This document shows, in pieces, positions 5,289-64,000 of a DNA stretch of 64,000 nt. Positions within the stretch are counted from its first letter, which is position 1; each line of letters opens with the position of its first letter. Location of the stretch: positions 1 to 64,000 of the forward strand of contig JBFMGO010000021.1 of assembly GCA_040752695.1 (NCBI GenBank), in the 5' to 3' direction. The notes beneath the pieces were generated by a model that saw only the letters and a program-made list of their open reading frames with translations, did not search any database and was not told the DNA's origin. This DNA is from a bacterium. Lineage in GTDB: Bacteria; SZUA-182; DTGQ01. Both the position numbers and the translations under genes were made by a program.

Positions 5289-5329
5289 GAGAAAAAAAGA
5301 CCGCTTCCGGGTAAAAATGAGCTGTCTTT

Positions 5330-6754: not shown

Positions 6755-6895
6755 GGTTTCTCCTTATGCAGTATTTCATGAGCCTTTTTCTTATTATTCG
6801 GAAATAGCACAGTTCAACTTTAGGTGGGAGGGCTGACTTTCGCCTTTTGGTGAGCGATTTATTCGTTATGGCGTTATATCGGCCAATTGTTCCTT

Positions 6896-6952
6896 TATCT
6901 GGCCGGTCTTCGGCTGTCCGGCCGGTTTTTCGGCTATCCGGCCAGTCTCAGC
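6896..6952. repeat. Three imperfect ~19-nt tandem copies spanning the ubiA stop codon
   Basis: tatctggccggtcttcggc / tgtccggccggtttttcggc / tatccggccagtctcagc. Confidence 0.6.
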
Positions 6953-7809
6953 ACATCGATAATGGCAGCAGTGCAAAGCACGATGCTGATTACCCCATTA
7001 GCGATAAAGAAAGAGAAATTGGCCCTGGACAGGTCTTCGGGACGGATGATCCAGTGCTGGTAGAGAAGGAAAAAAAGAGTCACCATATAACCGGCTGCAT
7101 AGACAATCCCTAATCCTGCCATTGGCCAGAGGGAGAAAAAACAGACGGCAGCCCCAAGGTGAAGGAGTATGGAAACCCATAAGCCGCCCCGGATGCCGAT
7201 CCTTGCAGGAATGGAATGAAGGTTTGCCGCCCGGTCGAAGTCATAATCCAGGCAGGCGTAAATGACATCAAACCCGCTCACCCAAAGCAGCACTCCGAGT
7301 CCGAGCACTACGGGCACCGGGTCGATCACGCCGGTAATGGCTATCCAGGCAGCCAGAGGGGAAAGCCCAAGGCAGAGCCCAAGAACCAGATGGGCAAGGG
7401 AGGTGAACCTTTTGGCAAAGGAATACAGGAGCAAGATGGCCAATACGAAAGGAGATAAAATCAGGCACAACCGATTCAGGCTGTAGGCTGCAAAGAAGAA
7501 TAGACCGCAGGAGATCAGAAGGAAAAAGATTACCTCGCCTTTTTTGATTTTCCCCGCAGGGATAGCCCGATCCTTTGTTCTGGGATTCCTGGCATCAAAG
7601 GAGGCATCCACCAACCGGTTGAAACTCATGGCAGCGCTGCGTGCTCCCACCATGGCCACCAGGATAAAGAACAGCTTCACCGGCGGCGGCCAGCCACGGG
7701 CTGCAAGAAAGGCAGCTAAAAGAGCGAAGGGGAGGGCAAAGATGGTGTGCTCGAATTTAATCATCTCAAGGATAATCTTCACATGATCGATCACTTTTCT
7801 CATGTTCAA
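6934..7809 (-). CDS. ubiA: UbiA-family prenyltransferase (MqnP-like)
   Basis: IKFEHTIFALPFA, ARSAAMSFNRLVDASFDARNPRT, GFDVIYACLD; multi-TM. Confidence 0.9.
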   Translation of the reverse strand: MNMRKVIDHVKIILEMIKFEHTIFALPFALLAAFLAARGWPPPVKLFFILVAMVGARSAAMSFNRLVDASFDARNPRTKDRAIPAGKIKKGEVIFFLLISCGLFFFAAYSLNRLCLILSPFVLAILLLYSFAKRFTSLAHLVLGLCLGLSPLAAWIAITGVIDPVPVVLGLGVLLWVSGFDVIYACLDYDFDRAANLHSIPARIGIRGGLWVSILLHLGAAVCFFSLWPMAGLGIVYAAGYMVTLFFLLYQHWIIRPEDLSRANFSFFIANGVISIVLCTAAIIDVLRLAG

Positions 7810-48802: not shown

Positions 48803-49561
48803 ATGAATCGATTTAAAACTGCCGTCAAGAGGTGGCTTGTTTTTATGACCTTGATTTTTGGCCTGACAGGGTATTGGGGATGTACAAAACAGGAGAAAGT
48901 GCTTTCTGACTTTGATTTATATAAAGGGGGAACCAGCTCGTTCGAAAAGGAAAAGTTTCAGGAGGCCCGAAAATACTTTCAGGATATTGAAGTTATCTAC
49001 CCTGAAAGCCGATATCTTTCTCTGGCCAGAGTAGGAATTGCCAATACGTACTATGAGGAGGGTTTATACGACGAAGCTATCATAGAATATCAGAAAGTGC
49101 TGGAGTTTTATCCTTTAGGCAAACTCTCGGACTGGTCGCAGTATCGGATCGGAATGTGCCATTTCCTGCAAATACTGCCGGAAGACCGTGATCAGGAAGA
49201 AACGCGAAAAGCCTGTTCGGCCTTTGAAACATTCTTTTCCCAATATCCAAAAAGTCCGTTGGTGAATGAGGCAAGAGAAAAATACCAGATCTTAAGGGAC
49301 CGCCTTGGCGGTAATGAGCTATATGTGGCTAAATTTTACCTCAAAAATAAATCGTATCAGGTGGCAATCAGCCGGTTGCAGGGAATTTTGGTTCAATATC
49401 CCCAGTTCAGCCGGAAGGATGAGGTCCTCTATTACCTGGCTCAATCCTTCAGAAAAAGTGGCAATAAGGAATTGGAAGAGGAAATGGGTCGTACGTTAAC
49501 CAGTCAGTATCCCGATTCACCATTTACCCGGAAGCTGTTGCAGGAAAGAATCGACCCGTAA
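48803..49561 (+). CDS. bamD: Outer-membrane assembly lipoprotein BamD
   Basis: Lipoprotein Cys, TPRs, DRDQEET, ELYVAKFY, AISRL. Confidence 0.88.
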   Translation: MNRFKTAVKRWLVFMTLIFGLTGYWGCTKQEKVLSDFDLYKGGTSSFEKEKFQEARKYFQDIEVIYPESRYLSLARVGIANTYYEEGLYDEAIIEYQKVLEFYPLGKLSDWSQYRIGMCHFLQILPEDRDQEETRKACSAFETFFSQYPKSPLVNEAREKYQILRDRLGGNELYVAKFYLKNKSYQVAISRLQGILVQYPQFSRKDEVLYYLAQSFRKSGNKELEEEMGRTLTSQYPDSPFTRKLLQERIDP

Positions 49562-49626
49562 CTTAAAGGAAGCGGAATAAAAACGGATCTTTTATCGGGA
49601 GAAGGGGCCTGGCATTACCTAAGCCG

Positions 49627-49655
49627 TTGACTTTTTTTGTTTTTTCTTGTATATT
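49627..49655 (+). promoter_or_regulatory. sigma70-type promoter of HEPN gene
   Basis: TTGACT-17-TATATT. Confidence 0.55.
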
Positions 49656-49742
49656 CAAGGCGAGAGGTAAATATGCCTTTCGATATGGGCCGGGAAAAGA
49701 AACAATGATTGTGTGGGGTATAAGAAGAAAGGAGAGAATTAA

Positions 49743-50171
49743 GTGCACGACCCGAAGGATATAGCTGAAGCGTATTTAACAGAGAGCACCGTAGACATTG
49801 AAACTGCGCGGCTGACCAACATTAACGGATTGTACAGCCGTACTATCCATTTTTCCCAGGAATGTGTGGAAAAAATCACCAAGGCCTGTCTGGCCTTGCG
49901 TGAAATTTTTACGCGTGACCACAAGACCTCGACCTTATTTTTAGCCGTATTCAGAAATGAAATTGAACAAATTGACGAAATACAAAAAGCGGCCTTGATT
50001 TTGGAAAAACATGGTGCCAGGACGAGATTTCCACTCTATCAGCGGGGTGATCTCCCCTTATGGGTCCCATCCAAGGTGTACGGGCCGGAAGAGGCAGGAG
50101 ATGCCCTGAAGCAGGGAGAATTTATCTATAATACATTAAAGGCTTTTTTAGAAAAAGAGATGAATAAGTAG
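49743..50171 (+). CDS. HEPN-domain protein
   Basis: Y..TIHFSQECVEKITKACL, TRDH, TRFP, EEA..AL. Confidence 0.8.
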   Translation: MHDPKDIAEAYLTESTVDIETARLTNINGLYSRTIHFSQECVEKITKACLALREIFTRDHKTSTLFLAVFRNEIEQIDEIQKAALILEKHGARTRFPLYQRGDLPLWVPSKVYGPEEAGDALKQGEFIYNTLKAFLEKEMNK

Positions 50172-50267
50172 CCGCAGAGGGTGTTATTCATATGCTCTCG
50201 AGCAGCCTTATGACACCCATGCGGTGCTGGAAAAACTGGTGACGGGTTAACGGGAGGAGAAAGCTGA

Positions 50268-50990
50268 TTGATTCCTTTGAAAGATGATGTCCCGAGTACA
50301 AGCTTTCCCGCAGTTACGGTGGCTGTTATCGGTTTGAACTGTCTTGTTTTTATTTCTCAAATGCTTTTTGGAGCGGAAGGCGGCAGGCGGATTGTCTCGA
50401 CATTTGGAATCATCCCTTACGAATTGAGCCATTTCACGGATCTCCCGCCGTATACTCCTATCCCTTTACCGTTTACGCTCATTACCTCCATGTTTCTCCA
50501 CGGTGGCCTGGCCCACCTTGTCGGGAATATGCTCTATCTTTGGATCTTCGGTGATAATGTGGAAGACTCCATGGGACATGTACGGTTTGCAGTTTTTTAC
50601 CTCTTATGCGGCCTGGCTGCTGCCTTCACCCAGATTATCGTCGCACCTTCATCAACTATACCGATGATAGGAGCCAGCGGGGCGATATCAGGGGTCTTAG
50701 GCGCTTATTTACTTTTGTACCCCAGGGCGAAGGTGTTGACTTTGATTTTTTTGGGTTTCTTTATCGAAACCGTGAGAATTCCGGCAAGCCTTTTACTTTC
50801 CCTCTGGATCATTATTCAGGTTCTCAGCGGAGCTTCCAGTTTAGTTGCCCATTCATTATCCGGTGGAGTTGCCTGGTTTGCCCATATCGGCGGTTTCCTC
50901 ATGGGAATTTTGCTTATCTCCTCATTTAAAAAACCTCACAAGGGGCTTAGGATAAGGAAGTGGGCAGATAAAAACGAAATAAGGTGGTGA
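50268..50990 (+). CDS. Rhomboid intramembrane serine protease
   Basis: MFLHGG..HL.GNM, GASGAISG, AWFAHIGGF. Confidence 0.93.
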   Translation: MIPLKDDVPSTSFPAVTVAVIGLNCLVFISQMLFGAEGGRRIVSTFGIIPYELSHFTDLPPYTPIPLPFTLITSMFLHGGLAHLVGNMLYLWIFGDNVEDSMGHVRFAVFYLLCGLAAAFTQIIVAPSSTIPMIGASGAISGVLGAYLLLYPRAKVLTLIFLGFFIETVRIPASLLLSLWIIIQVLSGASSLVAHSLSGGVAWFAHIGGFLMGILLISSFKKPHKGLRIRKWADKNEIRW

Positions 50991-50997
50991 TTTCCTC

Positions 50998-52401
50998 ATG
51001 CCTCATGCTCACATCCTGATTATCGACGATGAGATGCGGATACGCTCTTCACTGGCTGGCATTTTAACGGATGAGGGCTATGAAATCTCCATGGCCGCGG
51101 ATGGTGAGGCAGGTCTGGAAAAAATCCGGAGCGACCCCCCTCCTGATCTGGTTTTATCCGATATCTGGATGCCGAAACTGGATGGGCTGGAGCTTTTGCA
51201 GAAAATCAAAGAGTCGGACCTGGATGTACCGGTCATCATGATCTCAGGGCACGGTAATATCGAAACGGCAGTGAAGGCTATTAAAATGGGTGCCTTCGAT
51301 TTTCTCGAAAAGCCGCTCTCATTGGAAAAGACCGTATTGATCGTAAAACATGCCCTGGACCAGCGAAGGCTTGAGACAGAGAACAAAAACCTGCGAATGC
51401 GCATTAACAAAAGGTATGAAATCATCGGGCATAGCCTGATGCTGAACGAATTGAGAAAGCAGGTTCAAATCGCGGCTCCGACCAATGGGCGGGTTCTGAT
51501 TTACGGTGAAAACGGGACGGGAAAGGAGCTTATCGCCCGTGAGATCCACGAAAAGAGCAAAAGAAAAGATAAACCCTTCGTTGGGGTGAACTGTGCAGCT
51601 ATCCCTGAAGACCTCATCGAGAGCGAGCTGTTCGGCCATGAGAGAGGAGCCTTTACCGGCGCTGCCAGCCGAAGGCAGGGGAAATTCGAACTGGCCGATG
51701 GCGGAACCCTGTTCCTGGATGAAGTGGGTGACATGAGCCTTAAAACCCAGGCCAAGCTGTTGCGGGTTCTGGAAGAAGAAGCAGTACAGCGCGTCGGCGG
51801 CGGAGAGCCGATAAAGGTGGACGTGCGCGTCATCGCTGCCTCGAATAAGAATTTAAAGGATGAGATCGATCGCGGAAACTTCAGGGAGGATCTCTACTAT
51901 CGGCTCAGTGTCATCCCTATCAAGGTGCCGAGCTTAAAAGAACGAAAAGAAGATGTTCCTTCATTGGTCGATCATTTTTTGAGAGAGTTTTGCGCAGAAA
52001 ACGGCAAAAAACTGAAAAAAATTACCTCCGAAGCCATGGAGCTTTTGAGCCGCTACGATTGGCCCGGCAATGTACGGGAATTGAAGAACCTGATTGAGCG
52101 GCTGGTGATCATGGTACCGGGAAACACCATTACCGTTATGGATATCCCCTTATCGCTCAGGGAAAAAAGTCAACCATCCCTGCGCGAGGCCAAGCAGGAA
52201 TTTGAAAAATATATCATCACTCAGACCCTTCGGGCTAACCGGGGTAATATTTCAAAGAGTGCCAAGATCTTGAAAATCGATCGCAGCCTTCTTTATCAGA
52301 AATTAAAAACGTATGGTCTTGAACCAAAAAATGAGTCCCCAGATATGAAGAATGGATCAGCAGATAACCAGCAGAGGAAAAGGTATGACGAATTTATGTA
52401 A
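50998..52401 (+). CDS. Sigma54-dependent response regulator (NtrC/NtrX family)
   Basis: Receiver (IDDE, DIWMP), [14 protein letters not shown] intact, WPGNVREL, Fis-type HTH. Confidence 0.93.
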
Positions 52402-52762
52402 CGAATTAAAACTCGGCCCCGGACAATTGATACCTGCGATTATCCAGGATGCTGAAAGTAAAGATATCTTAATGCTTGCCTACATGAATCCCGAGACATT
52501 GAGGTTGACAATTGAAACCGGTATTACACACTTTTGGAGCAGATCGAGAAATTGCCTCTGGAAAAAGGGTGAAACTTCCGGAAACACGCAGGAAGTGCTG
52601 GAAATTCTCTACGACTGCGATGTGGATACCCTCCTGATCAAGGTCAAACAAAATGGGCCTGCCTGCCACACGGGGTATCGAACCTGCTTCTATCGGCAAT
52701 ATCAGGGAGATGACAAAGAGCCCAAAATCGTTTCTCAACAGATAGCGTCGTCACATCCCTGA
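52385..52762 (+). CDS. hisI: Phosphoribosyl-AMP cyclohydrolase
   Basis: LMLAYMN, FWSRSR, KGETSGN, DCDVD, ACHTG..TCF. Confidence 0.95.
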
Positions 52763-52804
52763 CGTGTATACACCGGAACAGACAGAAGGTTAAGGTCGAA
52801 CTCC

Positions 52805-54106
52805 TTGAAGGAAAATCAATCGCTTATCTATCACAAGGAAGTACTGGATAATGGCCTTCGCGTGATTATGGTGGAAATGCCCCATCTTCATTCCGTCGAG
52901 ATCAGCCTGTATGTTAAGGCTGGTACCCGTTTTGAGAATGCCGGCAATAACGGCATCTCTCATTTCGTAGAGCATATGCTGTTCCGGGGAACGAAGAGCA
53001 TGCCAAGTTCCTATCTTCTGCACAGGCGCTTTGAATCCCTGGGTGGAGACATCAACGCGGTAACCGGTGTTGAGGATACCTGTTTTTGGCTCAGCATTCA
53101 TCCCCGCTACTTCGAAAAAGGACTGGCCTGTTTTTCCGAAATGTTCCTCTCTCCTCAATTCGCCAATATGGAGACGGAAAAGCAGATCGTCCTGGAAGAA
53201 ATTTTGAATGAAACCAATGAAAAAGGAGAGGACATCGATATCGACAACCTCTCCTCCAGGATGCTCTGGCCCGATGACAGTCTGGGATTTTCCACTCTGG
53301 GAACCAGGGAAAACATCATGCGTTTTACCGAGGAAGAGGTCAGGTCTTTTTTCCAGACTTATTATACGGCCTCCAATATCGTTCTGTGTATTGCGGGCAA
53401 GGCCAGCCATCAAAAGATCCTGGCTTGTGTCCGCAAATACTTTTCCGGGCTTCCCACAGGCAGGGAAATCGAGATCATAAGCCCAAAATCCTCTCAGAAA
53501 GCCGCTCAGGTCCTTTTCAAGAAAAATCCCGGCAGTCAGGCCAATGTACAGATTTGCTTTCGATCCGTGTCATACAATGCTCCTGACTACTATGCGACCT
53601 TACTTGTGCAAAGAATTATGGATTCTGGCAATTCCTCCCGGCTTCAATGGAATATCCGCGAAAAACAGGGGCTGGTATATGACATTTCCGCCAGTGTCTC
53701 CTCTTTCTATGATACCGGCACCTTTGATGTCGATTTTTCCGTAGCCCCTGAAAAAATCTCCCGTGTGGTGCAGGAGATATTCCGGGAAATTCAAAAATTG
53801 ACCCTGTCGCCCGTTTCCCTAGAGGAGTTTCAGCGGGCTAAGCGCCGGTATATGCTCGAATTCGACTTCGCACTGGACAACGTAGCCAAGATGGCTGATC
53901 GATTCGGCTGGATGGAACTTTTTCGTCAGGGTGAATCTCTGGAATCAGAGAGGGAAAAGATCAAGCGGGTGACCAGAGAAGAGGTGCTTTTGTGGTGCAG
54001 GGAGCATTTCGTTAACGCAGGACTCAATATTGTCGTCCTGGGCCAGTACTCGAAGGAAGAGGAGAGCATGGTCAGAACACTGGCCCAGGAATTTCCACTG
54101 TCATGA
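52805..54106 (+). CDS. Cytoplasmic M16 zinc peptidase
   Basis: LDNGLRV, GISHFVEHMLFRGT, SSRL..IREKQGLVY. Confidence 0.92.
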   Translation: MKENQSLIYHKEVLDNGLRVIMVEMPHLHSVEISLYVKAGTRFENAGNNGISHFVEHMLFRGTKSMPSSYLLHRRFESLGGDINAVTGVEDTCFWLSIHPRYFEKGLACFSEMFLSPQFANMETEKQIVLEEILNETNEKGEDIDIDNLSSRMLWPDDSLGFSTLGTRENIMRFTEEEVRSFFQTYYTASNIVLCIAGKASHQKILACVRKYFSGLPTGREIEIISPKSSQKAAQVLFKKNPGSQANVQICFRSVSYNAPDYYATLLVQRIMDSGNSSRLQWNIREKQGLVYDISASVSSFYDTGTFDVDFSVAPEKISRVVQEIFREIQKLTLSPVSLEEFQRAKRRYMLEFDFALDNVAKMADRFGWMELFRQGESLESEREKIKRVTREEVLLWCREHFVNAGLNIVVLGQYSKEEESMVRTLAQEFPLS

Positions 54107-54116
54107 GATGAGGATA

Positions 54117-54830
54117 TTACGAAATACCCAGGATTGGAGCGATAACGATAGGAATAAAATTGGTGAGAAAATGCAAAACGATGACCATAGCCAGACTCTT
54201 CTTCCATAAAAACAGCAGGGAAAACACCAGGCCGATGTAACCTACAGCCATCATGCCCGCTGCACCTTCATAAGCGTGGCCTATCGTAAAAAGAAGGGTG
54301 GAGAGAAGAACGCTGATCAAGGGGTTTTCCGTAATCTCCTCAAGCCGGGTGATCAGATAGCCGCGAAAGATAATTTCTTCGGCAAAAGCCACCACCAGCA
54401 CCAGGACTCCGCCCAAAACGATTTCCCAGATACCCGTGGGCATTAAAGACAGGGGGACCTCCTCAATATGGCTCAAGCCCGCATGGGTGAAAAAATCCAG
54501 TATTTCCCCAACTGAAAAGTAAAAGAGGGGGAAGGTCACTATTCCCCAGAAGACATGCTTTTTAAGGTCCTTCCTGGTCCATCCGATCAGAGAAGGTTGC
54601 TCTCCCCTCAGCGTCAGGATAAAAAAGATGAGAGCCGTAAGGCCCAGGTTTCGAAAAATAGTAATCAAAGCAGTGATGGAAAAGGGGCAACTGTCCGGAC
54701 AAAAGAATACAGCCGGAAAAAGCAAAGAAGCAAAAGTGATTGACAGAAAGAACATGAGTTCGCGGAGCTTGCTTCTCCTGGGATCGTTTTGGAACTCTTC
54801 ATGCACCTTTTGAATAACCTCCTTGTACAT
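54117..54830 (-). CDS. CPBP/Abi intramembrane glutamic protease
   Basis: AEEIIFRG, FTIGH, LHFLTN. Confidence 0.9.
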   Translation of the reverse strand: MYKEVIQKVHEEFQNDPRRSKLRELMFFLSITFASLLFPAVFFCPDSCPFSITALITIFRNLGLTALIFFILTLRGEQPSLIGWTRKDLKKHVFWGIVTFPLFYFSVGEILDFFTHAGLSHIEEVPLSLMPTGIWEIVLGGVLVLVVAFAEEIIFRGYLITRLEEITENPLISVLLSTLLFTIGHAYEGAAGMMAVGYIGLVFSLLFLWKKSLAMVIVLHFLTNFIPIVIAPILGIS

Positions 54831-54918
54831 ACATCCATTTTTCTGACCATGGTATAGGTATAGTATAGGAAAAGATGCCTTTTGTCCACTTTTTACATCT
54901 TTGACTTGCCTGGCAATC

Positions 54919-54970
54919 TTTGACTTTGTGTGGTAATATATTCATTTGACCTTGTGTGGTAATATGTTCA
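54919..54970. repeat. 26-nt tandem repeat (24/26 identical) in divergent promoter region
   Basis: tttgactttgtgtggtaatatattca / tttgaccttgtgtggtaatatgttca. Confidence 0.85.
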
Positions 54971-55086
54971 ACTGTTCACTGCCGATTATACACCATAAGA
55001 CATGAAAGATAGGTCGGCGGGAGCGGAAAATACTTTGCTGGAGCCTTACGAGAAGAAGGTATGCAAACCGGGATGGAGACGTTATC

Positions 55087-56160
55087 ATGAAGTGGTCTTT
55101 CCAGGTTGGAAAATTTTTCGGAATTCCTCTAAAAATACATGTTACTTTTTGGCTGCTCTTGTTATTCGTGGCCTTGAGCTCAGGAAAGCAGGCAGGGGTG
55201 CAGGGAGGAGTGCATGGGGTGATTTTCGTAGCGTTGCTCTTTGCCTGTGTGGTGCTTCACGAGCTTGGCCATAGTGTTGTAGCCCAGCGGCTCGGGATTA
55301 GAGTCCGGGATATCATTCTCTTGCCCATTGGCGGCATTTCCCAGATGGAGAAGATCCCGGACGAGCCAAAGAGTGAACTTTTTATTTCCGCTATCGGTCC
55401 GGTGATCAGCCTGACCCTGGCCCTCCTTTTCTTTGCCGTGGCCCGGCTTTTGGGGCTCAGCACCGCCATACCTCAAGGCTCTCTTTTGGATGGGAATGTC
55501 CTGGTGGGTCTTTTCTGGATTAATCTTATCCTGGGGATTTTTAACCTTTTGCCTGCCTTCCCCATGGACGGAGGGAGAGTATTGCGGGCCCTTCTGGCCC
55601 TGCGGATGGAATATATCCAGGCCACCCATATCGCGGTAAGTGTGGGGCAGGTGTTCGCCATTTTCTTCTTCTTTTACGGACTGTTCTATAACTTCTGGCT
55701 GGCCTTGATAGGCATCTTTATCTATATGGGAGCAGAGGGTGAGGAGCATGAGACTATCTTACGCAGATCGTTAAGAAGAATACCGGTAGGGCAGGCCATC
55801 ATTACCAATTTTAATAAGCTCTCGCCGGATGACAACCTGCAAGATGCCATGGATATCGCCTGTCATAGCCTTCAAATGGATTTTCCCGTCATGCGTGACG
55901 GGGAACTCATCGGTATACTGCCAAAAGAGCAATTCCTGAAAGCCATGAGGGATTACTCAATGGATACCCCCATCAGAAGTGTCATGAGCACCGATTATAT
56001 TACCATCTCGGACACAGAACCCCTTGGAGATGCTTATTCCAGAATCAATGAAGTGAAAGGCGGCTTCGTACCGGTAATGCACGGTCAGACCCTCTTAGGA
56101 TTCATCAATATGGAGCAAATCGGCAAGTACCACATGCTCTGCGGAATGGGCAAACGATAA
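55087..56160 (+). CDS. Site-2 (M50) protease with CBS domains
   Basis: LHELGH, LLPIGG, NLLPAFPMDGGR, two CBS domains. Confidence 0.93.
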   Translation: MKWSFQVGKFFGIPLKIHVTFWLLLLFVALSSGKQAGVQGGVHGVIFVALLFACVVLHELGHSVVAQRLGIRVRDIILLPIGGISQMEKIPDEPKSELFISAIGPVISLTLALLFFAVARLLGLSTAIPQGSLLDGNVLVGLFWINLILGIFNLLPAFPMDGGRVLRALLALRMEYIQATHIAVSVGQVFAIFFFFYGLFYNFWLALIGIFIYMGAEGEEHETILRRSLRRIPVGQAIITNFNKLSPDDNLQDAMDIACHSLQMDFPVMRDGELIGILPKEQFLKAMRDYSMDTPIRSVMSTDYITISDTEPLGDAYSRINEVKGGFVPVMHGQTLLGFINMEQIGKYHMLCGMGKR

Positions 56161-56212
56161 GGGTACCCCTGTCACAAAAAAACGTTATTAATCATATGGC
56201 AAAAAGGCATCA

Positions 56213-56256
56213 GCCGCAGTGTTGGCAAAGGGCGCATGGCGTGCCAATACTGCGGC
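56213..56256. terminator. 15-bp hairpin between convergent genes
   Basis: gccgcagtgttggca / tgccaatactgcggc. Confidence 0.55.
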
Positions 56257-56280
56257 CTGACTGGAAATTGCTAAAATCTG

Positions 56281-57264
56281 CTACCAGAGAGGAAATTGGG
56301 AGCCATAGCTGAAGGGAGTTGAATACGTTTGGAATCCATAGCTGAAAGGGGTGCTGAAATTGCTTCCAAGGCCAAATCCGCCTGAAAATGTACTGCCGGT
56401 CCATCCGAAATTATTATAAGACGGGCTGAATAATCCAGTCCCCAAACCGGTGAATCCACCCAATCCGCCGCTGAGAGGGAACGTGGTGGCAAGACCAAAT
56501 AATGTTGTATTATAACTAAAGGTGAATGGGTTACTATAACCAAAGTTAAAGGTATTTCCCAGGCCATACCCGCCTGGATAGGTCATGGAGCCGCCGTAGT
56601 TCCCGTAAGATGGGGCATATGATCCATAGCCAGGGAGAGAAGGAGTATAAGGAATTGAAGGAGTGACATAAGGGGTATAAGGAGTGGTAGGCGTGTAGGG
56701 CGTGTAAGGCGTATAAGGAGTATAGGGATTATAAGGAGTAGTAGGTGTAGTAGGTGTCGTCGGGGTAGTGGGTGTAGTAGGAGTAGTGGGAGTGGTAGGA
56801 GTGGTGGAAGTGATAATCCCTCCTGCCGTGGTAGACAGGCCGGTCAGGTCATCAACCAGGTCGACCAGAGTAAGGGTGGTAGGCTCACATGTGAGCATGG
56901 TAAAAGTCAATGATACCACATTACCGCTGACTCCTGCAGCAATGCCGGCTCCTGTATCGAGCCCGCCAACCTGCAGAATGCCGCCTGGACGCTGCCCGAC
57001 ATCGAACATGGTAAAACCCTGAGTCAGGTTCCCCCTCGTGAATTGATGATACATAAGGACATTTTCATCATAGCTGATTTTAAATCCAAGGCTGCTTACG
57101 TTATGAGGAGCACTACTCAGAGAAACCGTGAACGTTACTTCTCCTCCTGTGCTAGGACAGGGCTGGCTATTGATAGCCAGGTTGCTGGCTGCGGCAAACA
57201 CTAGAGAAGACACGCAAAGAGCTGTAATGAACGAGATACTGCCTACGACATGCTTTTTTTTCAC
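56281..57264 (-). CDS. Secreted cohesin-like domain protein with (TPT)n/(TPY)n linker and G/F/Y/S-rich tail
   Basis: GTG 57264 with GGAGG; signal peptide; VTFTVSL..VSSLGFKISYDENVL..RGNLT..VSLTF (cohesin-like). Confidence 0.75.
   Translation of the reverse strand: MKKKHVVGSISFITALCVSSLVFAAASNLAINSQPCPSTGGEVTFTVSLSSAPHNVSSLGFKISYDENVLMYHQFTRGNLTQGFTMFDVGQRPGGILQVGGLDTGAGIAAGVSGNVVSLTFTMLTCEPTTLTLVDLVDDLTGLSTTAGGIITSTTPTTPTTPTTPTTPTTPTTPTTPYNPYTPYTPYTPYTPTTPYTPYVTPSIPYTPSLPGYGSYAPSYGNYGGSMTYPGGYGLGNTFNFGYSNPFTFSYNTTLFGLATTFPLSGGLGGFTGLGTGLFSPSYNNFGWTGSTFSGGFGLGSNFSTPFSYGFQTYSTPFSYGSQFPLW
56640..56810 (-). repeat. 9-nt coding repeats, (TPT)n grading into (TPY)n
   Basis: TTPTTPTTPTTPTTPTTPTTPTTPYNPYTPYTPYTPYTPTTPYTPY. 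Confidence 0.85.
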
Positions 57265-57598
57265 TTTCCTAAACCTCCATATTAATTTAAACAAGATGGC
57301 TACTGATATGAGCGGTGATTAAAGAAGATATTACCCTATCCTGGACGCTTCCCCTTCTCGAAAAAATCTCCCTCCAGGAAGAGACATTCAGTATAATTAT
57401 AACATTTATCCTTATCTATTTACCATTGATTTTTCACCTTTTCAGGAGATTTTTATTGCCGTAGGGCTTTAATTTCGGGTTCCTCCTGATATTTTTTCAC
57501 CGGTTATCACCTGTTTTCCTTATCACTCTTATCACCGTCACCGGCATCACCTGCCACTAAGCACCATAACCTTACCACCACCTTTGTTATTTCTCTCG

Positions 57599-60466
57599 TC
57601 ATCGTGCCTGTTGCCCTTCGATTTCGCCTATTTTCTCAAGGAGGGACCGTGCCTCCTGGTTATCCGGCTGGAGGCGGACACTTTCTATCATCTCATCATA
57701 GGCAGATCGATAGAGGCCCTGCCGGAAATAGGCTGCACCGAGCCGGTAGTGCAGGGCTGGATTTTCCGGGTCAAGATCGCTGGCCTTTTGCCAGGCGGTG
57801 ACAGCCTTTGCATCCTCCCCTCTTTGAGAGAAGGCCAGGCCGATATTGAAAAGATGGGTGGAAAGGTCAATGCCTTTTCCGGCCAGGGCTATCTTCCACT
57901 CTTCCAGAGCCTTGTCAATGAGATTTCTTTCGAAATAGGCATTGCCAAGGTTAAGATGCGCTCCCGGAAGATCGGTCTTCAGGGAAAGGGCTTTTTCGAA
58001 GGAGTGGATGGCCTGATCGGTTTGCCCAAGGCCCTGCTGGGCCTTTCCCAGTGAGTAATAGGCTAAAGGATCATCGGGGCGCAAGGTGACTACTTTCGAA
58101 AAAGCGGGCAATGCCGATGGGAAGTCCCCCTTCTCCAGATATAAAAGTCCGAGCTGGCTGTAGCCATCTGCATCATCCCGGTCCATCTCGATCGCCCGGC
58201 CAAAGATATCCTTAGCCAGATCATAGTCTTTCAGGCCGCAATAGGCCATCCCCAGGTTAATCATGGCATTTTTGTACCCTGGCCGGAGCGTTACGGCCTT
58301 TTTAAGCTCAAAAAGAGCATCCTGAAGTCGCCCCTGGTTCAGGTAAACACATCCCAGGTTATTATGTGCTTCGGGGTTATTCGGATCAAGAAAGATGGCT
58401 TTTTGGCAGTACTGGCTGGCAAGCTCTGGTTTCCCCTGGCTGTTGTAGACTAATCCTAAGTTTTGGTAGGCGCTAGGGTGGTTGGGATCGATCCTGATTG
58501 CAGCTTCGAAATGGGCAGCGGCCTTGTCGAAATTTGCCCCGTTCAAGAACAGGTTCCCTGCCTGGTTGTGGGCATCGAGGTAGTTGGGGTCAAGTTGCAG
58601 GGCCTGTTCTACTGCGGCCATGGCTTCATCCTTTTTACCCATCTTATCATAGGTAAGGCTCAGGTTATAGTGGATTTCAGGATATCCGGCCCAGGTCAGA
58701 GCAAGCCTGAACTCTGCCAGAGCCAGATCGTAACTTCCCTTTTGGTAATAAATCAGGCCAAGCTGGTTGTGGGCATCTATCTCGTCAGGATTAAGGCTCA
58801 ATGCCTTCTTGAATTCATATTCAGCCGGATCCGTCAGCTTCTTCTCCTGATAGACGCGGCCCAGATTAAGGTGAGCCGAAACATTGTCCGGGTTAATCTG
58901 AATGATCTTCTGGAAGCAGAGCATGGCCTGATCGTAAAGGTGAGCGTATAGATAGGAAATGCCCTGGTCCAGATAATCGATAAGAAAGATCATTTCCTTG
59001 GGGTCCTGACCACCCCCCTCTTTTACCTCACTCCCCTTTGGTCTTGTCCATACGTATCCCAGGCTTCGCAGCCGGTCCTGAACATCCCTGCTCATCTGAA
59101 CCTGTTTGACTGATTCATGATCTGGCGCATAGGATTTTTTCAATTTCTCAAGGTCATCCTTTAACTGGCTATGGATTTTTGCCTCTTTCTCATTGCAGGC
59201 TTTTGTATCCTTCACAGCGCAGGCTCTTGCCTCTTTCCCGATCAGGTTCTTTTTCTCACCGGGATCAATGGCGAGACGATAAACTTCGGGGTGAGGTGCC
59301 TGTATATATTTCCAATCTTTTTTGCGCACGCCTTCGAGCCTGCTCCAGCCGAAATTGAGTTTCGGACTGAGGCTTTCTAAGAGTATCTCCTGATGGATTT
59401 CCCTGCTCTTGCCGTACATCAGGGGCAATAGACTTTTTCCGGCAAGGTCAGGAGGCTGTTTAATATCGAAAAGGTCACAAACCGCAGGGAGGATATCCAG
59501 GTTGCTGACCAGTGCCTGAATCTTTTTCCCCCTGGGGAAAAGGCCATTTGGCCCTTTGATGATCAGAGGAATCCTGAGAGTTGATTCGTAAATGAAAATG
59601 GCATGGGTGGCTTCCCCGTGCTCTCCCAGGCTCTCCCCATGATCTGCGGTCAGGATGATGATTGTCCGGTTAGTCAGCCCCAAAAGGTCCAGTCCTTTTA
59701 TTAAATCGCCAAGGCACTGATCGGTATAGGCGATTTCTCCATCATAGGGGCATTTTTGATAGTCCCGGGCAAAGGGAAAAGGGGGCGAGTAAGCGGCGTG
59801 GGGGTCGAAGTAATGGAGCCAGAGAAAGAATCGCCGGTCGCCGTTTTCCTTCAGCCAGTCGAGTCCAAGACGGGTGATTTCTCCGGCATTGCGCTCGTTG
59901 TAGAGGATATCCGTCGGCTTTCCCCGCACAGGAAGCTTATCCTCGTAGAAATCGAAGCCCTGGTCCAGCCCGAAAATGGAGTTAAGAACAAACGATCCTA
60001 TACAGGCACCTGTCCGGCAGCCATTTTCCTTCAGGATTTCGGCCAGGGTGCGGGCTTTGTTTTCAAGAATGAAGTTGCCGTTATTGCGTACACCGTGCTG
60101 AATGGGGTACTGACCGGTCATGATGGAGGAGTGTGCAGGCAGGGTGATTGGGACAGGAGTGACGGCTTGAGTGAACAGCACGCCTTGAGCGGCCAGGGCA
60201 TCCAGGTTAGGTGTTTTTACCTTTTCGTATCCATAGCACCCCAGATGATCGGCTCTTAAGGTATCGATCGTGATGAGCAGTACATTATAATCCTTGTAAT
60301 CCTTTTCCTTTGGCCCGGCCCGAAGGGCACAGGCCGGGCTGATCTGGAAAAGTGACCAGGTCAGGAGTAAAGTAATTGCCATGTCAAAGAGATAACGCTT
60401 CGTAAGGCAAGTCATGAGGTACATTTTTGCGTGAGTCCTTCCGGTTCTTTGGCTTTTTTGCGGCAT
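57599..60466 (-). CDS. Sulfatase-fold (alkaline phosphatase superfamily) protein with C-terminal TPRs
   Basis: NVLLITIDTLRADHLGCYG, ITLPAHSSIMTG, HYFDPH, YDGEI, TADHGE, LRSLGY; many TPRs. Confidence 0.88.
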   Translation of the reverse strand: MPQKSQRTGRTHAKMYLMTCLTKRYLFDMAITLLLTWSLFQISPACALRAGPKEKDYKDYNVLLITIDTLRADHLGCYGYEKVKTPNLDALAAQGVLFTQAVTPVPITLPAHSSIMTGQYPIQHGVRNNGNFILENKARTLAEILKENGCRTGACIGSFVLNSIFGLDQGFDFYEDKLPVRGKPTDILYNERNAGEITRLGLDWLKENGDRRFFLWLHYFDPHAAYSPPFPFARDYQKCPYDGEIAYTDQCLGDLIKGLDLLGLTNRTIIILTADHGESLGEHGEATHAIFIYESTLRIPLIIKGPNGLFPRGKKIQALVSNLDILPAVCDLFDIKQPPDLAGKSLLPLMYGKSREIHQEILLESLSPKLNFGWSRLEGVRKKDWKYIQAPHPEVYRLAIDPGEKKNLIGKEARACAVKDTKACNEKEAKIHSQLKDDLEKLKKSYAPDHESVKQVQMSRDVQDRLRSLGYVWTRPKGSEVKEGGGQDPKEMIFLIDYLDQGISYLYAHLYDQAMLCFQKIIQINPDNVSAHLNLGRVYQEKKLTDPAEYEFKKALSLNPDEIDAHNQLGLIYYQKGSYDLALAEFRLALTWAGYPEIHYNLSLTYDKMGKKDEAMAAVEQALQLDPNYLDAHNQAGNLFLNGANFDKAAAHFEAAIRIDPNHPSAYQNLGLVYNSQGKPELASQYCQKAIFLDPNNPEAHNNLGCVYLNQGRLQDALFELKKAVTLRPGYKNAMINLGMAYCGLKDYDLAKDIFGRAIEMDRDDADGYSQLGLLYLEKGDFPSALPAFSKVVTLRPDDPLAYYSLGKAQQGLGQTDQAIHSFEKALSLKTDLPGAHLNLGNAYFERNLIDKALEEWKIALAGKGIDLSTHLFNIGLAFSQRGEDAKAVTAWQKASDLDPENPALHYRLGAAYFRQGLYRSAYDEMIESVRLQPDNQEARSLLEKIGEIEGQQAR

Positions 60467-60478
60467 TTGGTTTTTCCC

Positions 60479-60997
60479 TTACTGTTGCGGGGAAAGAAAA
60501 TTATCCATGATGAAATAGATAATTGATTCTTGAGGAGACACACCGATGTTGGCTGCATAGTTATAAAGATTCGCTCCGATATAATCGGCTGTCTGATCGT
60601 ATATATAAAGAAAAGGTGTCTGACTGGCCAGTTCATAAAAGTGAAGGGCATAGTTCAGGTAGTTATACATTTCATTCAGTTGCATTATGGGATTATAAAA
60701 CGTATAGGAATTCAGTGCTGAATAAGAAGGAGCATAGGCTGACAGCGGAGAAAAGAGTGATCCATTTCCATAGTATCCCCCAAGAAAAGGATTAGCGAAA
60801 TTTAAGCCTGTAAAACCTGCCCAAGAGCTGTAATAAGGAAGGAACAGCCCGCTGAAGGGGTAATTTCCATACAGATAGGGTGAATAGATCCCTTGAGCTT
60901 GAGCTAATGTGAAATAGACACTGACTATGATTCCCCCCGCCAAAAGCCCGGCAAGTGCCCTGGCAACTATAGACTGCATTAAGGATTTCAATTTCAT
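60479..60997 (-). CDS. Hypothetical secreted Tyr-rich protein
   Basis: ATG 60997 with AAGGAGGT; signal LAQA|QGI; Y/F/G/S/N-rich. Confidence 0.75.
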   Translation of the reverse strand: MKLKSLMQSIVARALAGLLAGGIIVSVYFTLAQAQGIYSPYLYGNYPFSGLFLPYYSSWAGFTGLNFANPFLGGYYGNGSLFSPLSAYAPSYSALNSYTFYNPIMQLNEMYNYLNYALHFYELASQTPFLYIYDQTADYIGANLYNYAANIGVSPQESIIYFIMDNFLSPQQ

Positions 60998-61046
60998 ACC
61001 TCCTTTAGAAGAATGTTGGCCTTGGTTTTCCCCCCACCCGAAAGGA

Positions 61047-61126
61047 AGCAAGGAGGAGGACCGGCAGGTGAGGAAAGTGCTCTGACCCTTTTGCCCTTTT
61101 TCCTCACCCACCGTATCCCCCTTGCT
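61047..61126 (-). other. Long imperfect intergenic hairpin
   Basis: agcaagg/ccttgct and ggtgaggaaa/tttcctcacc nested arms. Confidence 0.55.
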
Positions 61127-61215
61127 GCCTTATCCTTACTTGGTTCAATAATGCATACAGCCGATACGTTCTTTAGGTTACCAGCCTAAGAACTTTTATC
61201 TTCTTCTCCCCCTTG

Positions 61216-61809
61216 TCATATCGCCGGCAGCCCGAATACCTGGGACGCGGTCAAGAGTGATGACGGACTTACCCCCAGAGCATTCCCGTAGGCCAGTAGA
61301 TACGAGAGATTAGCCAAATCAAACAGGTAAATAGCCTGAGTTGTGGGCAGCGTGGCCGGCGTTGGAGCCAGAATGGAGTAGCCCGGCAGCAAACTGATAG
61401 GAGCAGGGGCTCCGGTAACAGGATCGAGGTATTTGGCCGGAGGCCAGGGATTTATCCCATAGAGCACATCAAAATAGACCAGACCGGTCGGGCTGTTGTA
61501 AAAGAGCCAGGGCGGCTGCTCTCCCATGGGCCAGCCTGTGGCCGGACCTGCCAGGGTCCACCAGTCGGGGTCCCAGGCCAGGGCAGGCTGCACAGGAAGA
61601 ATGGTATTCCGGGTAAGTGAAGTTACAATGGGTGTCGGAGTTCCCGCAGCATTGGACGGCGATAGGACTGGAGACCAAAGCGGCCAGAGGATATTATAAG
61701 GGGGCAAGGGCACCCAGTTCTGGGCCTGCACGGTCGGCTGTCCTGTTGCTAAAAACGAAGACAGAACCATAAGTGCTAAAACCGTATAACAACTTTTTTT
61801 CCTCAACAT
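61216..61809 (-). CDS. Secreted Pro/aromatic-rich paralog 4 (subtype B)
   Basis: ATG 61809 with AGGAGG; VQA|QNWVPLPPYNILWPLWSP...FGLPAI. Confidence 0.85.
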   Translation of the reverse strand: MLRKKSCYTVLALMVLSSFLATGQPTVQAQNWVPLPPYNILWPLWSPVLSPSNAAGTPTPIVTSLTRNTILPVQPALAWDPDWWTLAGPATGWPMGEQPPWLFYNSPTGLVYFDVLYGINPWPPAKYLDPVTGAPAPISLLPGYSILAPTPATLPTTQAIYLFDLANLSYLLAYGNALGVSPSSLLTASQVFGLPAI

Positions 61810-61847
61810 GACTATTTTCCTCCTCATTCTTCTGCATTCACCGAAGG

Positions 61848-62402
61848 TTATATAGGCGGTAGTCCCCATATCTGAGCTGCGGTCAGCAGATTGAGAAAGT
61901 CCGCTCCTGTGACACCGTAAGACAATGCGTAGGTTGCATTAGCCAGAGGTATGTAGTACTCCAGATGGGCCAGGGATGTCGGTAAGAGGAGGGTCCATGT
62001 AGACAGCAAGGTAATCGGAGCTGGAGCACCGGTAGCAGGGTCGAGCATATAACTGGGCGGCCAGGGATTCATACCGTAAACCTGATCAAAATAAGTGAGA
62101 CCGCCCCCAAAAGCGATTGGAGTGTTATATATGGCCCAGGGTGTGACTTGGGCGGGGTCCCAGACCAATCCCGGCTGTGTGGGGAGCACGGTGTTTTTGG
62201 TTATGCTGCTTACCAGAGGAGTAGCTAAGCCGGTAGCGGGATTGACCGGAGACAGGGCTGGTGACCATAAGGGCCACAGGACATTATAAGGAGGCATGAT
62301 TTGCCAATTGGCTGCCCCAGCCGATGAAACAATCAATAAACCCAAAATGCACAATACGATAAAGGTAAATGTTAATGCAAGGGATTTCCTTTCTTTAAAC
62401 AT
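61848..62402 (-). CDS. Secreted Pro/aromatic-rich paralog 3 (subtype A)
   Basis: ATG 62402 with AAGGAG; AGA|ANWQIMPPYNVLWPLWSP...WGLPPI. Confidence 0.85.
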   Translation of the reverse strand: MFKERKSLALTFTFIVLCILGLLIVSSAGAANWQIMPPYNVLWPLWSPALSPVNPATGLATPLVSSITKNTVLPTQPGLVWDPAQVTPWAIYNTPIAFGGGLTYFDQVYGMNPWPPSYMLDPATGAPAPITLLSTWTLLLPTSLAHLEYYIPLANATYALSYGVTGADFLNLLTAAQIWGLPPI

Positions 62403-62524
62403 AGGTGAATCTCCTTTTGGATCTGAACAAATCAAGTCTTGAGAAAATGTCGTTAAGCCGTATTTTTTCCGAGCTAAAAACAATCCCCAAATCCATAATC
62501 TTCCTAAAAGATAAAGAGACACCT

Positions 62525-63091
62525 CTAAATGGGAGGAAGACCCCAGATATCGGCATAGGTCAGTAATGAGGATGAGTTTACACCAAGGTTGAAACCGTAA
62601 CCGAGCAGGTAGGTCAAATTGGCCAATTCTATCAATGCCAGGTTTGTCTCTTTCAGCAATGGTAAGGAGAGAAAGGTATAGTCGGGTGGCAGGGTGAGGG
62701 GAACGGGTGCTCCCGTCGTTGGATCGAGCAGCTTGGCAGGAGGCCAGGGATTGAGGCCATAGACAATATCATAAAAAACCACGCCCGTTGGAGTGTTATA
62801 AAAGAGATAGGGGAATACCGTACCCATCGGCCCGGTGTAGGTAGGGGTAGGATTCATGGCCAGCACAGGCTGCACTGGGAGTATGGTATTGCGGGAAAGT
62901 TCGGGGATCAGGGGAGTGGGTAAACCGGTAACCGGGCTTTTCGGCGACAGGGTGGGAGACCACAAAGGCCAGAGGATGTTGTACGGCGGCAAAGCCTGCC
63001 AGTTCTGAGCCCAGGCAGAAGAAATGATACCTGCCCCCAGAATGATCGAAAGAACAGCGAGAAAGGTCACATATAATCTTTTCATACGCAT
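62525..63091 (-). CDS. Secreted Pro/aromatic-rich paralog 2 (subtype B)
   Basis: AAGGAG RBS; AWA|QNWQALPPYNILWPLWSP...WGLPPI. Confidence 0.85.
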   Translation of the reverse strand: MRMKRLYVTFLAVLSIILGAGIISSAWAQNWQALPPYNILWPLWSPTLSPKSPVTGLPTPLIPELSRNTILPVQPVLAMNPTPTYTGPMGTVFPYLFYNTPTGVVFYDIVYGLNPWPPAKLLDPTTGAPVPLTLPPDYTFLSLPLLKETNLALIELANLTYLLGYGFNLGVNSSSLLTYADIWGLPPI

Positions 63092-63113
63092 AAGCTGTTT
63101 CTCCTTTTTTAGC

Positions 63114-63656
63114 CTACAGTGGAGGCAATCCCCAGATAGAAGCGCTGGTCAAAAGGCTCGTTAACGGGACTCCATACTGATACGAGTAAACGGCATTGGC
63201 CAGGGGGACATAATATTCAAGTCCCTTTAAAGCGGTTGGCAAGAGAACTGACCAGCTCAGAGGCAGGGTGATCGGCTTCGGAGCCCCGCTCACAGCATCG
63301 ACCATATAGCTTGGCGGCCAGGGATTCAGACCATAATACAGATCAAAGTATAATAATCCGCCTCCAAAAGCCGTCGGAGTATTATAGAGTGCCCACGGAA
63401 CCCCGGTACCGGCTGGCTGAAGCGGGTCCCAGGCCAGGGCAGGCTGCACCGGAAGTATGGTATTCCTGGTGAGATTCGTTACCAGAGGAGTACCTCCCGG
63501 CGACAGGGCTGGAGACCAGAGTGGCCACAGGACATTATAAGGAGGCATGGCAGCCCAATTGGCCTGCGCCTGCACCAGGGCAGGAAGAAGGATACTTATG
63601 CTGATTAAGGTAATAAAAATAAAGAGAAAAATGACAGCTTTCTTTCCTTTAAACAT
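63114..63656 (-). CDS. Secreted Pro/aromatic-rich paralog 1 (subtype A)
   Basis: GAGGTG RBS; VQA|QANWAAMPPYNVLWPLWSP...WGLPPL. Confidence 0.85.
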   Translation of the reverse strand: MFKGKKAVIFLFIFITLISISILLPALVQAQANWAAMPPYNVLWPLWSPALSPGGTPLVTNLTRNTILPVQPALAWDPLQPAGTGVPWALYNTPTAFGGGLLYFDLYYGLNPWPPSYMVDAVSGAPKPITLPLSWSVLLPTALKGLEYYVPLANAVYSYQYGVPLTSLLTSASIWGLPPL

Positions 63657-63691
63657 ACGTCACCTCGTAATCATGAACGTAAACCTTGTGA

Positions 63692-63711
63692 ATCGATAGT
63701 TATCGATAGTT
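63692..63711. repeat. 10-nt tandem duplication upstream of paralog array
   Basis: atcgatagtt x2. Confidence 0.7.
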
Positions 63712-64000
63712 AATGGTTGTCATAACGATGAGAAACATGTAAAATATTTATTCATTTTTGAAAAGTTGACATTCCCCCTTTCTGGATGCTTCGATGATGC
63801 CTTTGGTCGGGTCCTTACGGTATCTGTAAAGGTGTCCGGAAGGGGGTCTAAGCCTTCCTTGCTGTTTTACAAAGATCATCATGTGCAATTACCTGTGAAA
63901 TGGTGGTTACATGAAGGTACAAGATAGAAAAACGAAGGGTCTCTTATGGCCTCACCTCCTTTTTATCATGATCACCTTCAGGCAAATCAGCCAAAAGGTG

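Follow-up and report, generated by a model that had tools for sequence, protein, structure and literature searches.

The WxL clusters (Csc/Elr) of Bacillota encode small mature proteins that consist of one domain only, together with large ones in which the same invariant module is joined to variable payloads, among them a beta-helix class; the small subunits self-associate (PMC10599100; bioRxiv 10.64898/2026.10.17.759780). The module is C-terminal in 2,867 of 2,871 WxL adhesins (bioRxiv 10.64898/2026.10.17.759780). In Streptomyces, the chaplins and rodlins are small secreted hydrophobic proteins with several paralogues that form a surface coat by self-assembly (PMC3079736, PMC5314377). Here we analysed a 64,000-nucleotide stretch of bacterial DNA ("the window"; positions 1 to 64,000 of contig JBFMGO010000021.1), in which positions 61216-63656 hold an array of four genes, A to D, for secreted Pro/Trp/Tyr-rich proteins that share one domain. 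A previous sequence-only reading had proposed that their products are self-assembling subunits of a sheath, fibre or surface layer (S-layer). We favour, with a probability of roughly 0.45, a reading in which the shared domain forms trimers and serves a surface coat or matrix both as building block and as attachment module. In organisation, the WxL clusters appear to be its closest analogue.

All four genes lie on the minus strand, as had been noted, and are separated by gaps of 22, 122 and 38 nt. Gene A (63114-63656) encodes a 180-residue precursor, in which a Sec-type leader precedes a domain marked by the PPYN-LWPLW motif and belonging to the array-type subfamily of the family described below. 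The precursor encoded by gene B (62525-63091) has 188 residues, and its mature part corresponds to window positions 62528-63007. Genes C (61848-62402) and D (61216-61809) encode precursors of 184 and 197 residues, respectively, the product of D having an additional WWTLAGPATGWPMGEQPP loop. Both genes are contained in longer open reading frames (61848-62522 for C and 61216-61869 for D). We chose the shorter ATG starts, at 62402 and 61809, which stand directly 3' of AAAGGAG (C) and GAGGAGG (D) and agree with the starts of orthologues: the start of C matches that of orthologue P0011, and the start of D those of P0003, P0005 and P0008. A purine-rich Shine-Dalgarno-like site precedes each ATG (GAGGTG, AAGGAG, AAGGAG and GAGGAGG for A to D, respectively). 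Scans of positions 57000-64000 for sigma-70 promoters and terminators gave no excess over shuffled sequences. Upstream of gene A, the contig continues for 738 nt and ends.

Judged by eye from the sequence, all four leaders begin with a basic n-region, continue into a hydrophobic core and end at an A-x-A-type cleavage site right before (Q/A)NW. The mature proteins contain no Cys and only 6-11 charged residues in 149-168. Across the four, 62 of the 206 alignment columns are invariant, and identity to A is 50-62%. Every motif listed in the sequence-only reading was found: NW..PPYN(I/V)LWPLWSP.LSP, NT(I/V)LP(V/T)QP, YN(T/S)P, YG(L/M/I)NPWPP, LAN and LLT...(W/F)GLP(P/A)(I/L). Its claims of ribosome-binding sites, Sec signals and a Cys-free, charge-poor mature region likewise held. 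A family hidden Markov model recognised the four proteins with E-values of 1e-81 to 1e-94 (2.8e-81 for A and 6.5e-94 for B), and by this measure their likeness is far beyond chance.

Scans of the four proteins against Pfam, NCBIfam and PHROGs placed none of them in a family above threshold, and hmmscan against Pfam-A at E up to 1 returned sub-threshold, unrelated entries only (YL1_C, E 0.065; DUF5989, E 0.23). The proteins do have relatives. A profile built from the four found at least 881 homologues in a set of 5.8 billion proteins, a lower bound that counts matches with E no higher than 0.001 among 8,000 scored candidates. None of the 120 homologues listed has a Pfam domain; any name given to them is "hypothetical protein", and the source is an unclassified "bacterium". 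An exhaustive profile search of 1.84 billion representatives returned only 102 clusters at 50% identity. We found no description of the family in the literature searched. No relative was found among viral contigs, and an origin from phage tail fibres was dropped on this ground. The family had been called unrecognised, and together with the fold searches below these results bear that out.

The genome from which the window derives (6.05 Mb, 239 contigs) contains 29 full-length paralogues at 21 loci. In a survey of 20 species genomes of the phylum, the family was present in all 13 genomes of the window's order (its own genome, G000, included), with 11-68 matches each, and absent from all seven genomes of other orders, which are 85-97% complete. 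Because the surveyed genomes are related, this pattern amounts to only one gain or one loss. The 178 mature sequences collected from the own genome and from 79 related loci fall into two types. The PPYN-T-LW type (94 sequences) makes up 66 of the 73 single-gene loci; the PPYN-(I/V/L)-LW type (82 sequences, window genes included) dominates arrays of 3 to 9 genes. A quick maximum-likelihood tree splits the two types with a support of 96. Two further features of the genome concern its family copies. At C49 8333-8874, on the minus strand, a copy extends over three overlapping frames and is probably a frameshifted pseudogene. Within a three-gene array of C45, the genes at 33909-34547 and 36304-36960 encode mature products identical over the first 150 residues, which indicates a recent duplication.

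The array paralogues of the window have one-to-one orthologues at locus L039 of another metagenome-assembled genome (MAG): A corresponds to 4869-5435 (81% identical), B to 5492-6064 (80%), C to 6266-6820 (71%) and D to 6862-7449 (79%), as against 50-65% identity between each window gene and the non-matching family genes of L039. The ratio of nonsynonymous to synonymous substitution rates (dN/dS) is about 0.08 (0.076 for A, 0.087 for C and 0.08 for D), with dS at 1.5-2.3, which is near saturation. This indicates that the array genes are under purifying selection. The tree places A, B and D next to their respective L039 orthologues as sisters (support 97, 99 and 95), and the B-like and D-like subclades contain genes of several MAGs. 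One-to-one orthology and the tree together imply that the paralogues are old and have been kept distinct. This argues for different roles of the array paralogues over a recent amplification.

The composition of the family is unusual. The 29 mature paralogues consist of 17.9% Pro, 16.1% Leu, 10.0% Thr, 5.4% Tyr and 4.8% Trp, and contain a single Cys in total; Asp, Glu, Lys and Arg together make up 4.7%, versus 22.4% in the long open reading frames of the genome. Each protein is laid out as a leader, a conserved core of about 130 residues, a linker of 0 to about 100 residues, which in some copies is made of Pro/Thr/Val-rich repeats, and a short conserved LLT...(I/L).G(L) segment. The last residue is Ile, Leu, Pro, Phe, Trp or Tyr in 177 of the 178 family proteins. 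The invariant positions are taken by Pro, Trp, Tyr, Leu, Gly, Asn, Ser, Thr, Gln and Asp; none is His, Cys, Glu, Lys or Arg. This set fits the earlier view that the proteins are not enzymes, and gives no hint of a catalytic or metal site.

We modelled mature B with AlphaFold2, using 138 aligned relatives. In the model (mean predicted local distance difference test score (pLDDT) 90.9; predicted template modelling score 0.85), six short strands are accompanied by a 22-residue helix (120-141) and, at the C terminus, by a second, short helix. A second model, of P0128, a distant 358-residue long member from the other subfamily, has the same order of elements in the family domain, and adds a disordered linker and an 8-stranded barrel. 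A Foldseek search of the B model against 350,542 PDB chains gave nothing at E up to 0.001 (best 2.3), and a search of BFVD gave no match (best E 1.2). VIA-align against 48,161 representative chains returned four chains at Z≥2, with a best Z of 2.4; models without a match usually still reach Z 7-8, hence this result is unusually empty. The recognition value in the ESM Atlas was 1637, where 91 of 100 proteins of known families reach 2300, and the top clusters were unnamed hypothetical proteins, so that little can be read from this search. The family domain as modelled has no recognisable fold, although in a predicted structure this irregular and rich in Pro a missing match is not proof of a new one. 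To judge from sequence and model, the domain appears to belong to a family that had not been described before.

Prediction of complexes points to self-association. Three copies of mature B gave complex scores (ipSAE) of 0.83, 0.85 and 0.85, and three controls with unrelated proteins gave 0.00; the runs agreed in at least 85% of contacts, and the pLDDT of the partners was at least 87. Among proteins used for calibration, 20 of 30 solved as pairs and 1 of 23 solved as single chains reached the mark, figures that come from two copies and the tool's own alignments and apply only roughly to the three-copy run of B. In the three-copy model, the helices meet at a three-fold axis, where residues 128 and 131 touch their own equivalents. 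The C-terminal segment (residues 150-152 and 157-160) packs against the next chain at residues 80-86 and 90-92, where the expected errors are lowest. Such packing of the C terminus would account for a short motif that is conserved behind a linker of variable length.

The same contacts can be cited for the strict form of the sequence-only reading, in which the proteins are subunits of an open-ended fibre, sheath or S-layer, and the LLT...GLPPI arm, sometimes on a long Pro/Thr-rich tether, inserts into the next unit. The most confident inter-chain contacts are indeed those of the C-terminal segment (150-152 and 157-160 against 81-85 and 90 of the neighbour), this segment is kept however long the linker and nearly always ends on a hydrophobic, aromatic or Pro residue, and arrays of distinct conserved paralogues resemble sets of major and minor subunits. 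However, the multimer prediction with three copies is a closed three-fold assembly, no fibre-assembly genes were seen among the annotated neighbours, and Pro-rich sequence disfavours cross-beta amyloid. We regard an open polymer of this kind as rather unlikely. A sheath, fibre or S-layer would be a plausible sub-case of the coat or matrix that we favour, rather than an established one.

The domain is also used as a part of larger proteins. In a Pfam scan of 13 long representatives, the stretch matching the family begins within about 65 residues of the start in 12, the exception being P0146, where it is internal; nine of the 13 have no Pfam domain at all. In P0136 the family domain follows directly after the leader, and is followed in turn by a right-handed beta-helix (Beta_helix) and PKD domains, and in P0147, again directly after the leader, by an LVIVD propeller. 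P0166 (2519 residues) has it at the start, before FG-GAP and BACON domains; this protein begins inside the domain, at profile position 61, and may be truncated at its N terminus. In a 1026-residue protein at L097, the family domain is followed by five units, each made of a Pro/Ala/Val/Thr-rich linker and a module of about 100 residues. The family domain therefore behaves as a constant module with variable payloads.

The module of about 100 residues models as an 8-stranded barrel that resembles avidins, the NHBA C-domain, the TbpB C-lobe and small OmpA-type barrels (Z 11-13; best Foldseek E 5.7e-4). A search of the own genome for PF04575, which would link barrel payloads to Slam and the type 11 secretion system (T11SS), found none, but the control genomes gave no match either. 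The barrel module also occurs in exported proteins with Gly/Tyr-rich low-complexity or Pro/Thr-rich stretches, encoded at L063 3619-4140 and 4284-5297, L069 7099-7752, L077 3152-3778, L084 3713-4423 and, in the own genome, C33 25012-25728. These suggest that the lineage has its own set of secreted proteins, modular and with almost no charge.

That the domain is joined to varied payloads, as binding modules are, would also suit an attachment or lectin-like module that binds a non-protein polymer of the envelope (polysaccharide, peptidoglycan or lipid) by an aromatic N-terminal face, the domain-only copies being free binders or caps. Indeed, the N-terminal 22 residues, rich in Trp, Tyr, Pro and Asn, are the most conserved segment of the family (majority fraction 0.82) and lie outside the predicted protein-protein interface, and carbohydrate-binding sites typically present aromatic platforms together with Asn, Gln or Asp. 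For free binders, however, 11-68 matches per genome, mostly domain-only and in conserved arrays of 3-9 distinct paralogues, would be unusual. Moreover, Pfam assigned no carbohydrate-binding family, the fold searches were empty, and no glycan-synthesis genes recur beside the family. We therefore consider a lectin-like role unlikely.

Downstream of gene D, the locus runs on into two genes of the same strand. The first (60479-60997) encodes a 172-residue exported Gly/Tyr-rich protein, conserved downstream of the array, with a low-complexity N-terminal half rich in Gly, Tyr, Ser and Phe and a strongly conserved C-terminal part of 60 residues; it matched nothing in Pfam, NCBIfam or PHROGs. The genome has only two copies of this partner gene, and both adjoin array-type family genes (chance 1.3e-4). 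The partner family comprises eight proteins, two of which are encoded next to D orthologues in two other MAGs. At all four loci where neighbours were seen it adjoins array-type genes, and in three it stands directly downstream of a D-type gene. A possible kinship of the partner with the C-terminal helix region of the family proteins was not significant (hhalign probability 0.2; BLASTP E 1.7).

The second gene (57599-60466) begins 12 nt after the partner gene and encodes a protein of 955 residues with a Pfam Sulfatase domain (E 2.1e-45) and TPR repeats. In alignment it has T-L-P-A-H where solved sulfatases have C-x-P-x-R; the C/S-x-P-x-R signature of type I (formylglycine) sulfatases is not there, and the protein was rejected as one of these. 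Because of this replacement it is a sulfatase-fold protein that is probably not a sulfate esterase; we presume, as a guess from knowledge of the superfamily, a phospho-ester transferase or hydrolase. No paper on a Thr-type sulfatase with TPR repeats was found in the literature searched. Of its 16 paralogues in the genome, three have a family gene on the same strand less than about 1 kb away (P 7e-4), and relatives adjoin family arrays at L033, L037, L039, L100 and L103. The clade and the family occur in an identical set of 13 of the 20 genomes; the clade has 4-13 copies in each of these, and none was found at E up to 1e-60 in the seven genomes of sister orders. At L039, five family genes, the Gly/Tyr-rich gene, the sulfatase-like/TPR gene and a divergent M50-CBS peptidase gene stand in the same order as in the window. 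The sequence-only reading saw the array only; it missed the 29 copies in the genome, the use of the domain as N-terminal module of large proteins, and the continuation of the locus into the Gly/Tyr-rich and sulfatase-like/TPR genes.

Recurrence beside the Thr-type sulfatase-like/TPR genes, with the same phyletic pattern, may be read as a sign of a non-structural role in the periplasm or at the outer membrane, where the proteins would carry hydrophobic ligands or be substrates or adaptors of these enzymes. They are, moreover, very hydrophobic, and their Sec leader comes without an evident route across the outer membrane. We hold such a role to be quite improbable: the fused payloads (beta-helix, PKD, LVIVD, FG-GAP and BACON) are typical of extracellular proteins, the enzyme lies within 1 kb at only 3 of the 21 family loci of the own genome, and none of the searches run indicated a pocket or ligand.

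Upstream of its array, L039 has further genes: the fifth family gene, a gene for a small Cys-containing membrane protein, and two for Pro/Thr-rich exported proteins. Six of the seven copies of the Pro/Thr-rich exported proteins with hydrophobic ends in the own genome adjoin family genes. These proteins have an aromatic/Pro-rich start, a long Pro/Thr/Val/Ala-rich middle and an LL..LLI-type end; the genes are C1 106034-106534, C45 34882-35334 and 37026-37571, C63 21184-21663 and 23365-23898, and C13 71455-71940 in the own genome, and L039 1611-2078 and 2195-2833. A small membrane-anchored family, whose members begin with a conserved LDAPEY.RC.H..CEFLE and finish with I.TS(I/V)I(R/K)S, is encoded beside array-type arrays at nine loci (among them L039 3216-3647, L036 9870-10337, L037 640-1047, and, in the own genome, C122 9845-10414, C95 407-874, C10 81810-82286 and C78 446-904). 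It has no Pfam match, and no copy lies in the window, whose contig stops just upstream of gene A.

The neighbour Pfam scans covered 13 genes of the window, 20 of the own genome and 14 plus 5 proteins of related loci. The commonest class of neighbour comprised two-component (histidine kinase) and sigma-54/NtrC-type activator genes, with 28 genes at 20 loci. A sigma-54-type -24/-12 site (TGGCAC-N5-(T/A)TGC, score at least 9 of 11) precedes 7 of the 29 family genes, versus 106 of 3,000 random windows; such sites lie upstream of C48 828-1433, C27 25912-26688 and 27821-28381, C45 10275-10880 and others. For the array of the window, sigma-54 control was rejected, the four genes scoring only 4-7 of 11. 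Beyond the sulfatase-like/TPR gene, the flanking genes of the window (48803-57294) have mostly envelope or protease functions: BamD (48803-49561), a rhomboid (50268-50990), a sigma-54 response regulator (50998-52401), an M16 peptidase (52805-54106), a CPBP/Rce1-like protease (54117-54830), the M50-CBS peptidase (55087-56160) and a cohesin-domain protein (56281-57294). The genome has 29 cohesin-type paralogues, few of them near family genes, and their enrichment there is weak. BamD in the window, and a gene for a TolC-like OEP elsewhere in the genome, indicate an envelope of two membranes.

How does the locus compare with the described systems? Like the WxL clusters, it combines domain-only with payload-bearing members, and self-association, here predicted, would be common to both; the window proteins even contain two W-x-L triplets, WPL and WGL. 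Unlike WxL proteins, however, none of the four matches a Pfam family, WxL included, and the module is N-terminal, where that of WxL adhesins is C-terminal. The WxL domain has an Ig-like fold that is incomplete and is joined by a donor strand from the N terminus, whereas the model here is a small sheet with a long helix; no Ig-like chain is listed for the B model at Z≥2 among the 48,161, an absence that does not by itself exclude the fold. Further, the annotated neighbours include neither a DUF916/DUF3324 chaperone nor an LPxTG partner, and WxL proteins are confined to Bacillota, whereas the lineage here has outer-membrane genes. Membership of the WxL family fails on the profile, on the end that carries the module, and on the chaperone and LPxTG partner.

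Fungal hydrophobins and BslA, like the chaplins, are small secreted hydrophobic proteins that self-assemble into surface coats. The locus shares with these, and with the rodlins, the idea of a hydrophobic coat made from several paralogues. Unlike chaplins, hydrophobins and BslA, to which no sequence match was found, the family proteins are Pro-rich, predicted to be globular, and about 150 residues long. Chaplins act as amyloid and are far shorter. Functional amyloids of the chaplin, curli and Fap kinds were rejected, as no Pfam or NCBIfam profile matched. Hydrophobins have eight conserved Cys in four disulfides; membership was rejected on the count of no Cys in mature A-D and one in the 29 paralogues. 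As for chaperone-usher pilins, no usher or chaperone gene was seen among the neighbours annotated, a set short of all neighbours, and no match to a pilin fold was seen.

Modules at the N terminus offer other parallels. Phage tailspike head-binding domains, BclA-type exosporium fibres and trimeric adhesins combine a trimer module at one end with a stalk and a payload, a beta-helix in the case of tailspikes. The family resembles them in its end module, predicted to form trimers, in its stalks and payloads, and in one long member with a right-handed beta-helix. It differs in that no similarity was found in PDB or BFVD and no relative among viruses, and in that most members have neither stalk nor payload. 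SLH domains are helical envelope anchors that bind pyruvylated cell-wall polymers and can be N-terminal just after the leader. The family likewise places an N-terminal module just after the leader of diverse exoproteins, but has no Pfam match to SLH and shows no sign of a pyruvylated cell-wall ligand.

Several results weigh against a trimer-forming coat module. Conservation is lower at the predicted interface than elsewhere in the protein, with a mean majority fraction of 0.50 versus 0.69 over 138 sequences, and of 0.63 versus 0.775 in the four window proteins; the helix, at 0.50, is the least conserved segment of all. This may mean that pairing is paralogue-specific, or that the interface is not real. 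We think it probable, going by the model, that pairing is paralogue-specific and that the invariant N-terminal face serves something else. The complex prediction covered three copies of a single paralogue, B, and the result, a closed trimer round a helix bundle, lends no support to a lattice or fibre. The proteins are exported by Sec without a lipobox and have no evident path over the outer membrane, so that they may be periplasmic. No usher, secretin or sortase-like genes recur among the annotated neighbours. Finally, the phyletic match between the family and the sulfatase-like/TPR clade amounts to a single evolutionary contrast. The earlier claim of self-assembly thus stands in part: self-association is predicted (a three-copy score of 0.85 versus 0.00), but as a closed trimer instead of an open polymer, by a less conserved interface, and with no assembly machinery among the annotated neighbours.

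With these points taken into account, the trimer-forming coat and attachment module remains the reading that we favour, and it suggests the following mechanism. The proteins would be exported by Sec and the leader cut just before (Q/A)NW, leaving a single domain of about 150 residues. The predicted fold of this domain is a small beta-sheet that packs against a single long helix. By means of these helices, three chains would join, the C-terminal LLT...GLPPI segment of each lying on the YG.NPWPP strand of a neighbour. We infer that the invariant N-terminal PPYN-LWPLWSP face, outside the interface, docks members onto a common partner or onto each other. The domain-only paralogues, A to D included, would make up most of a hydrophobic coat or matrix at the surface, in which the long members may plant their payloads by means of the family domain: beta-helix, PKD, LVIVD propeller, and series of 8-stranded barrels borne on Pro/Thr-rich stalks. 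Additional components of the matrix would be the exported Gly/Tyr-rich and Pro/Thr-rich proteins encoded in the same clusters. The sulfatase-like/TPR enzyme is a candidate modifier, which might act on the family proteins.

A bolder version of this would be a wholly new outer coat or mesh with its own fold and assembly logic, in which trimers are latched or cross-linked by exchangeable C-terminal arms, docked by the aromatic N-terminal face, furnished with payloads on Pro/Thr-rich stalks, joined by Gly/Tyr-rich and Pro/Thr-rich partners, and modified by the Thr-type sulfatase-fold/TPR protein. As a whole, we consider it speculative and not likely.

The case made here rests on sequence statistics and structure prediction, and its main value is a concrete and testable target, one protein of 160 residues. 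If the predictions hold, the family represents a new protein fold and a new self-associating surface module. A nearly uncharged, lysine-poor and trimer-forming unit of 150 residues may also have practical use as a self-assembling scaffold. The family would be a further system of the type "attachment domain plus payload", next to SLH, WxL and cohesin-dockerin. With 11-68 matches per genome, it would account for a visible part of the proteins secreted by an entire uncultivated order, and would offer a first way into the cell envelope of a lineage that is known from metagenomes alone.

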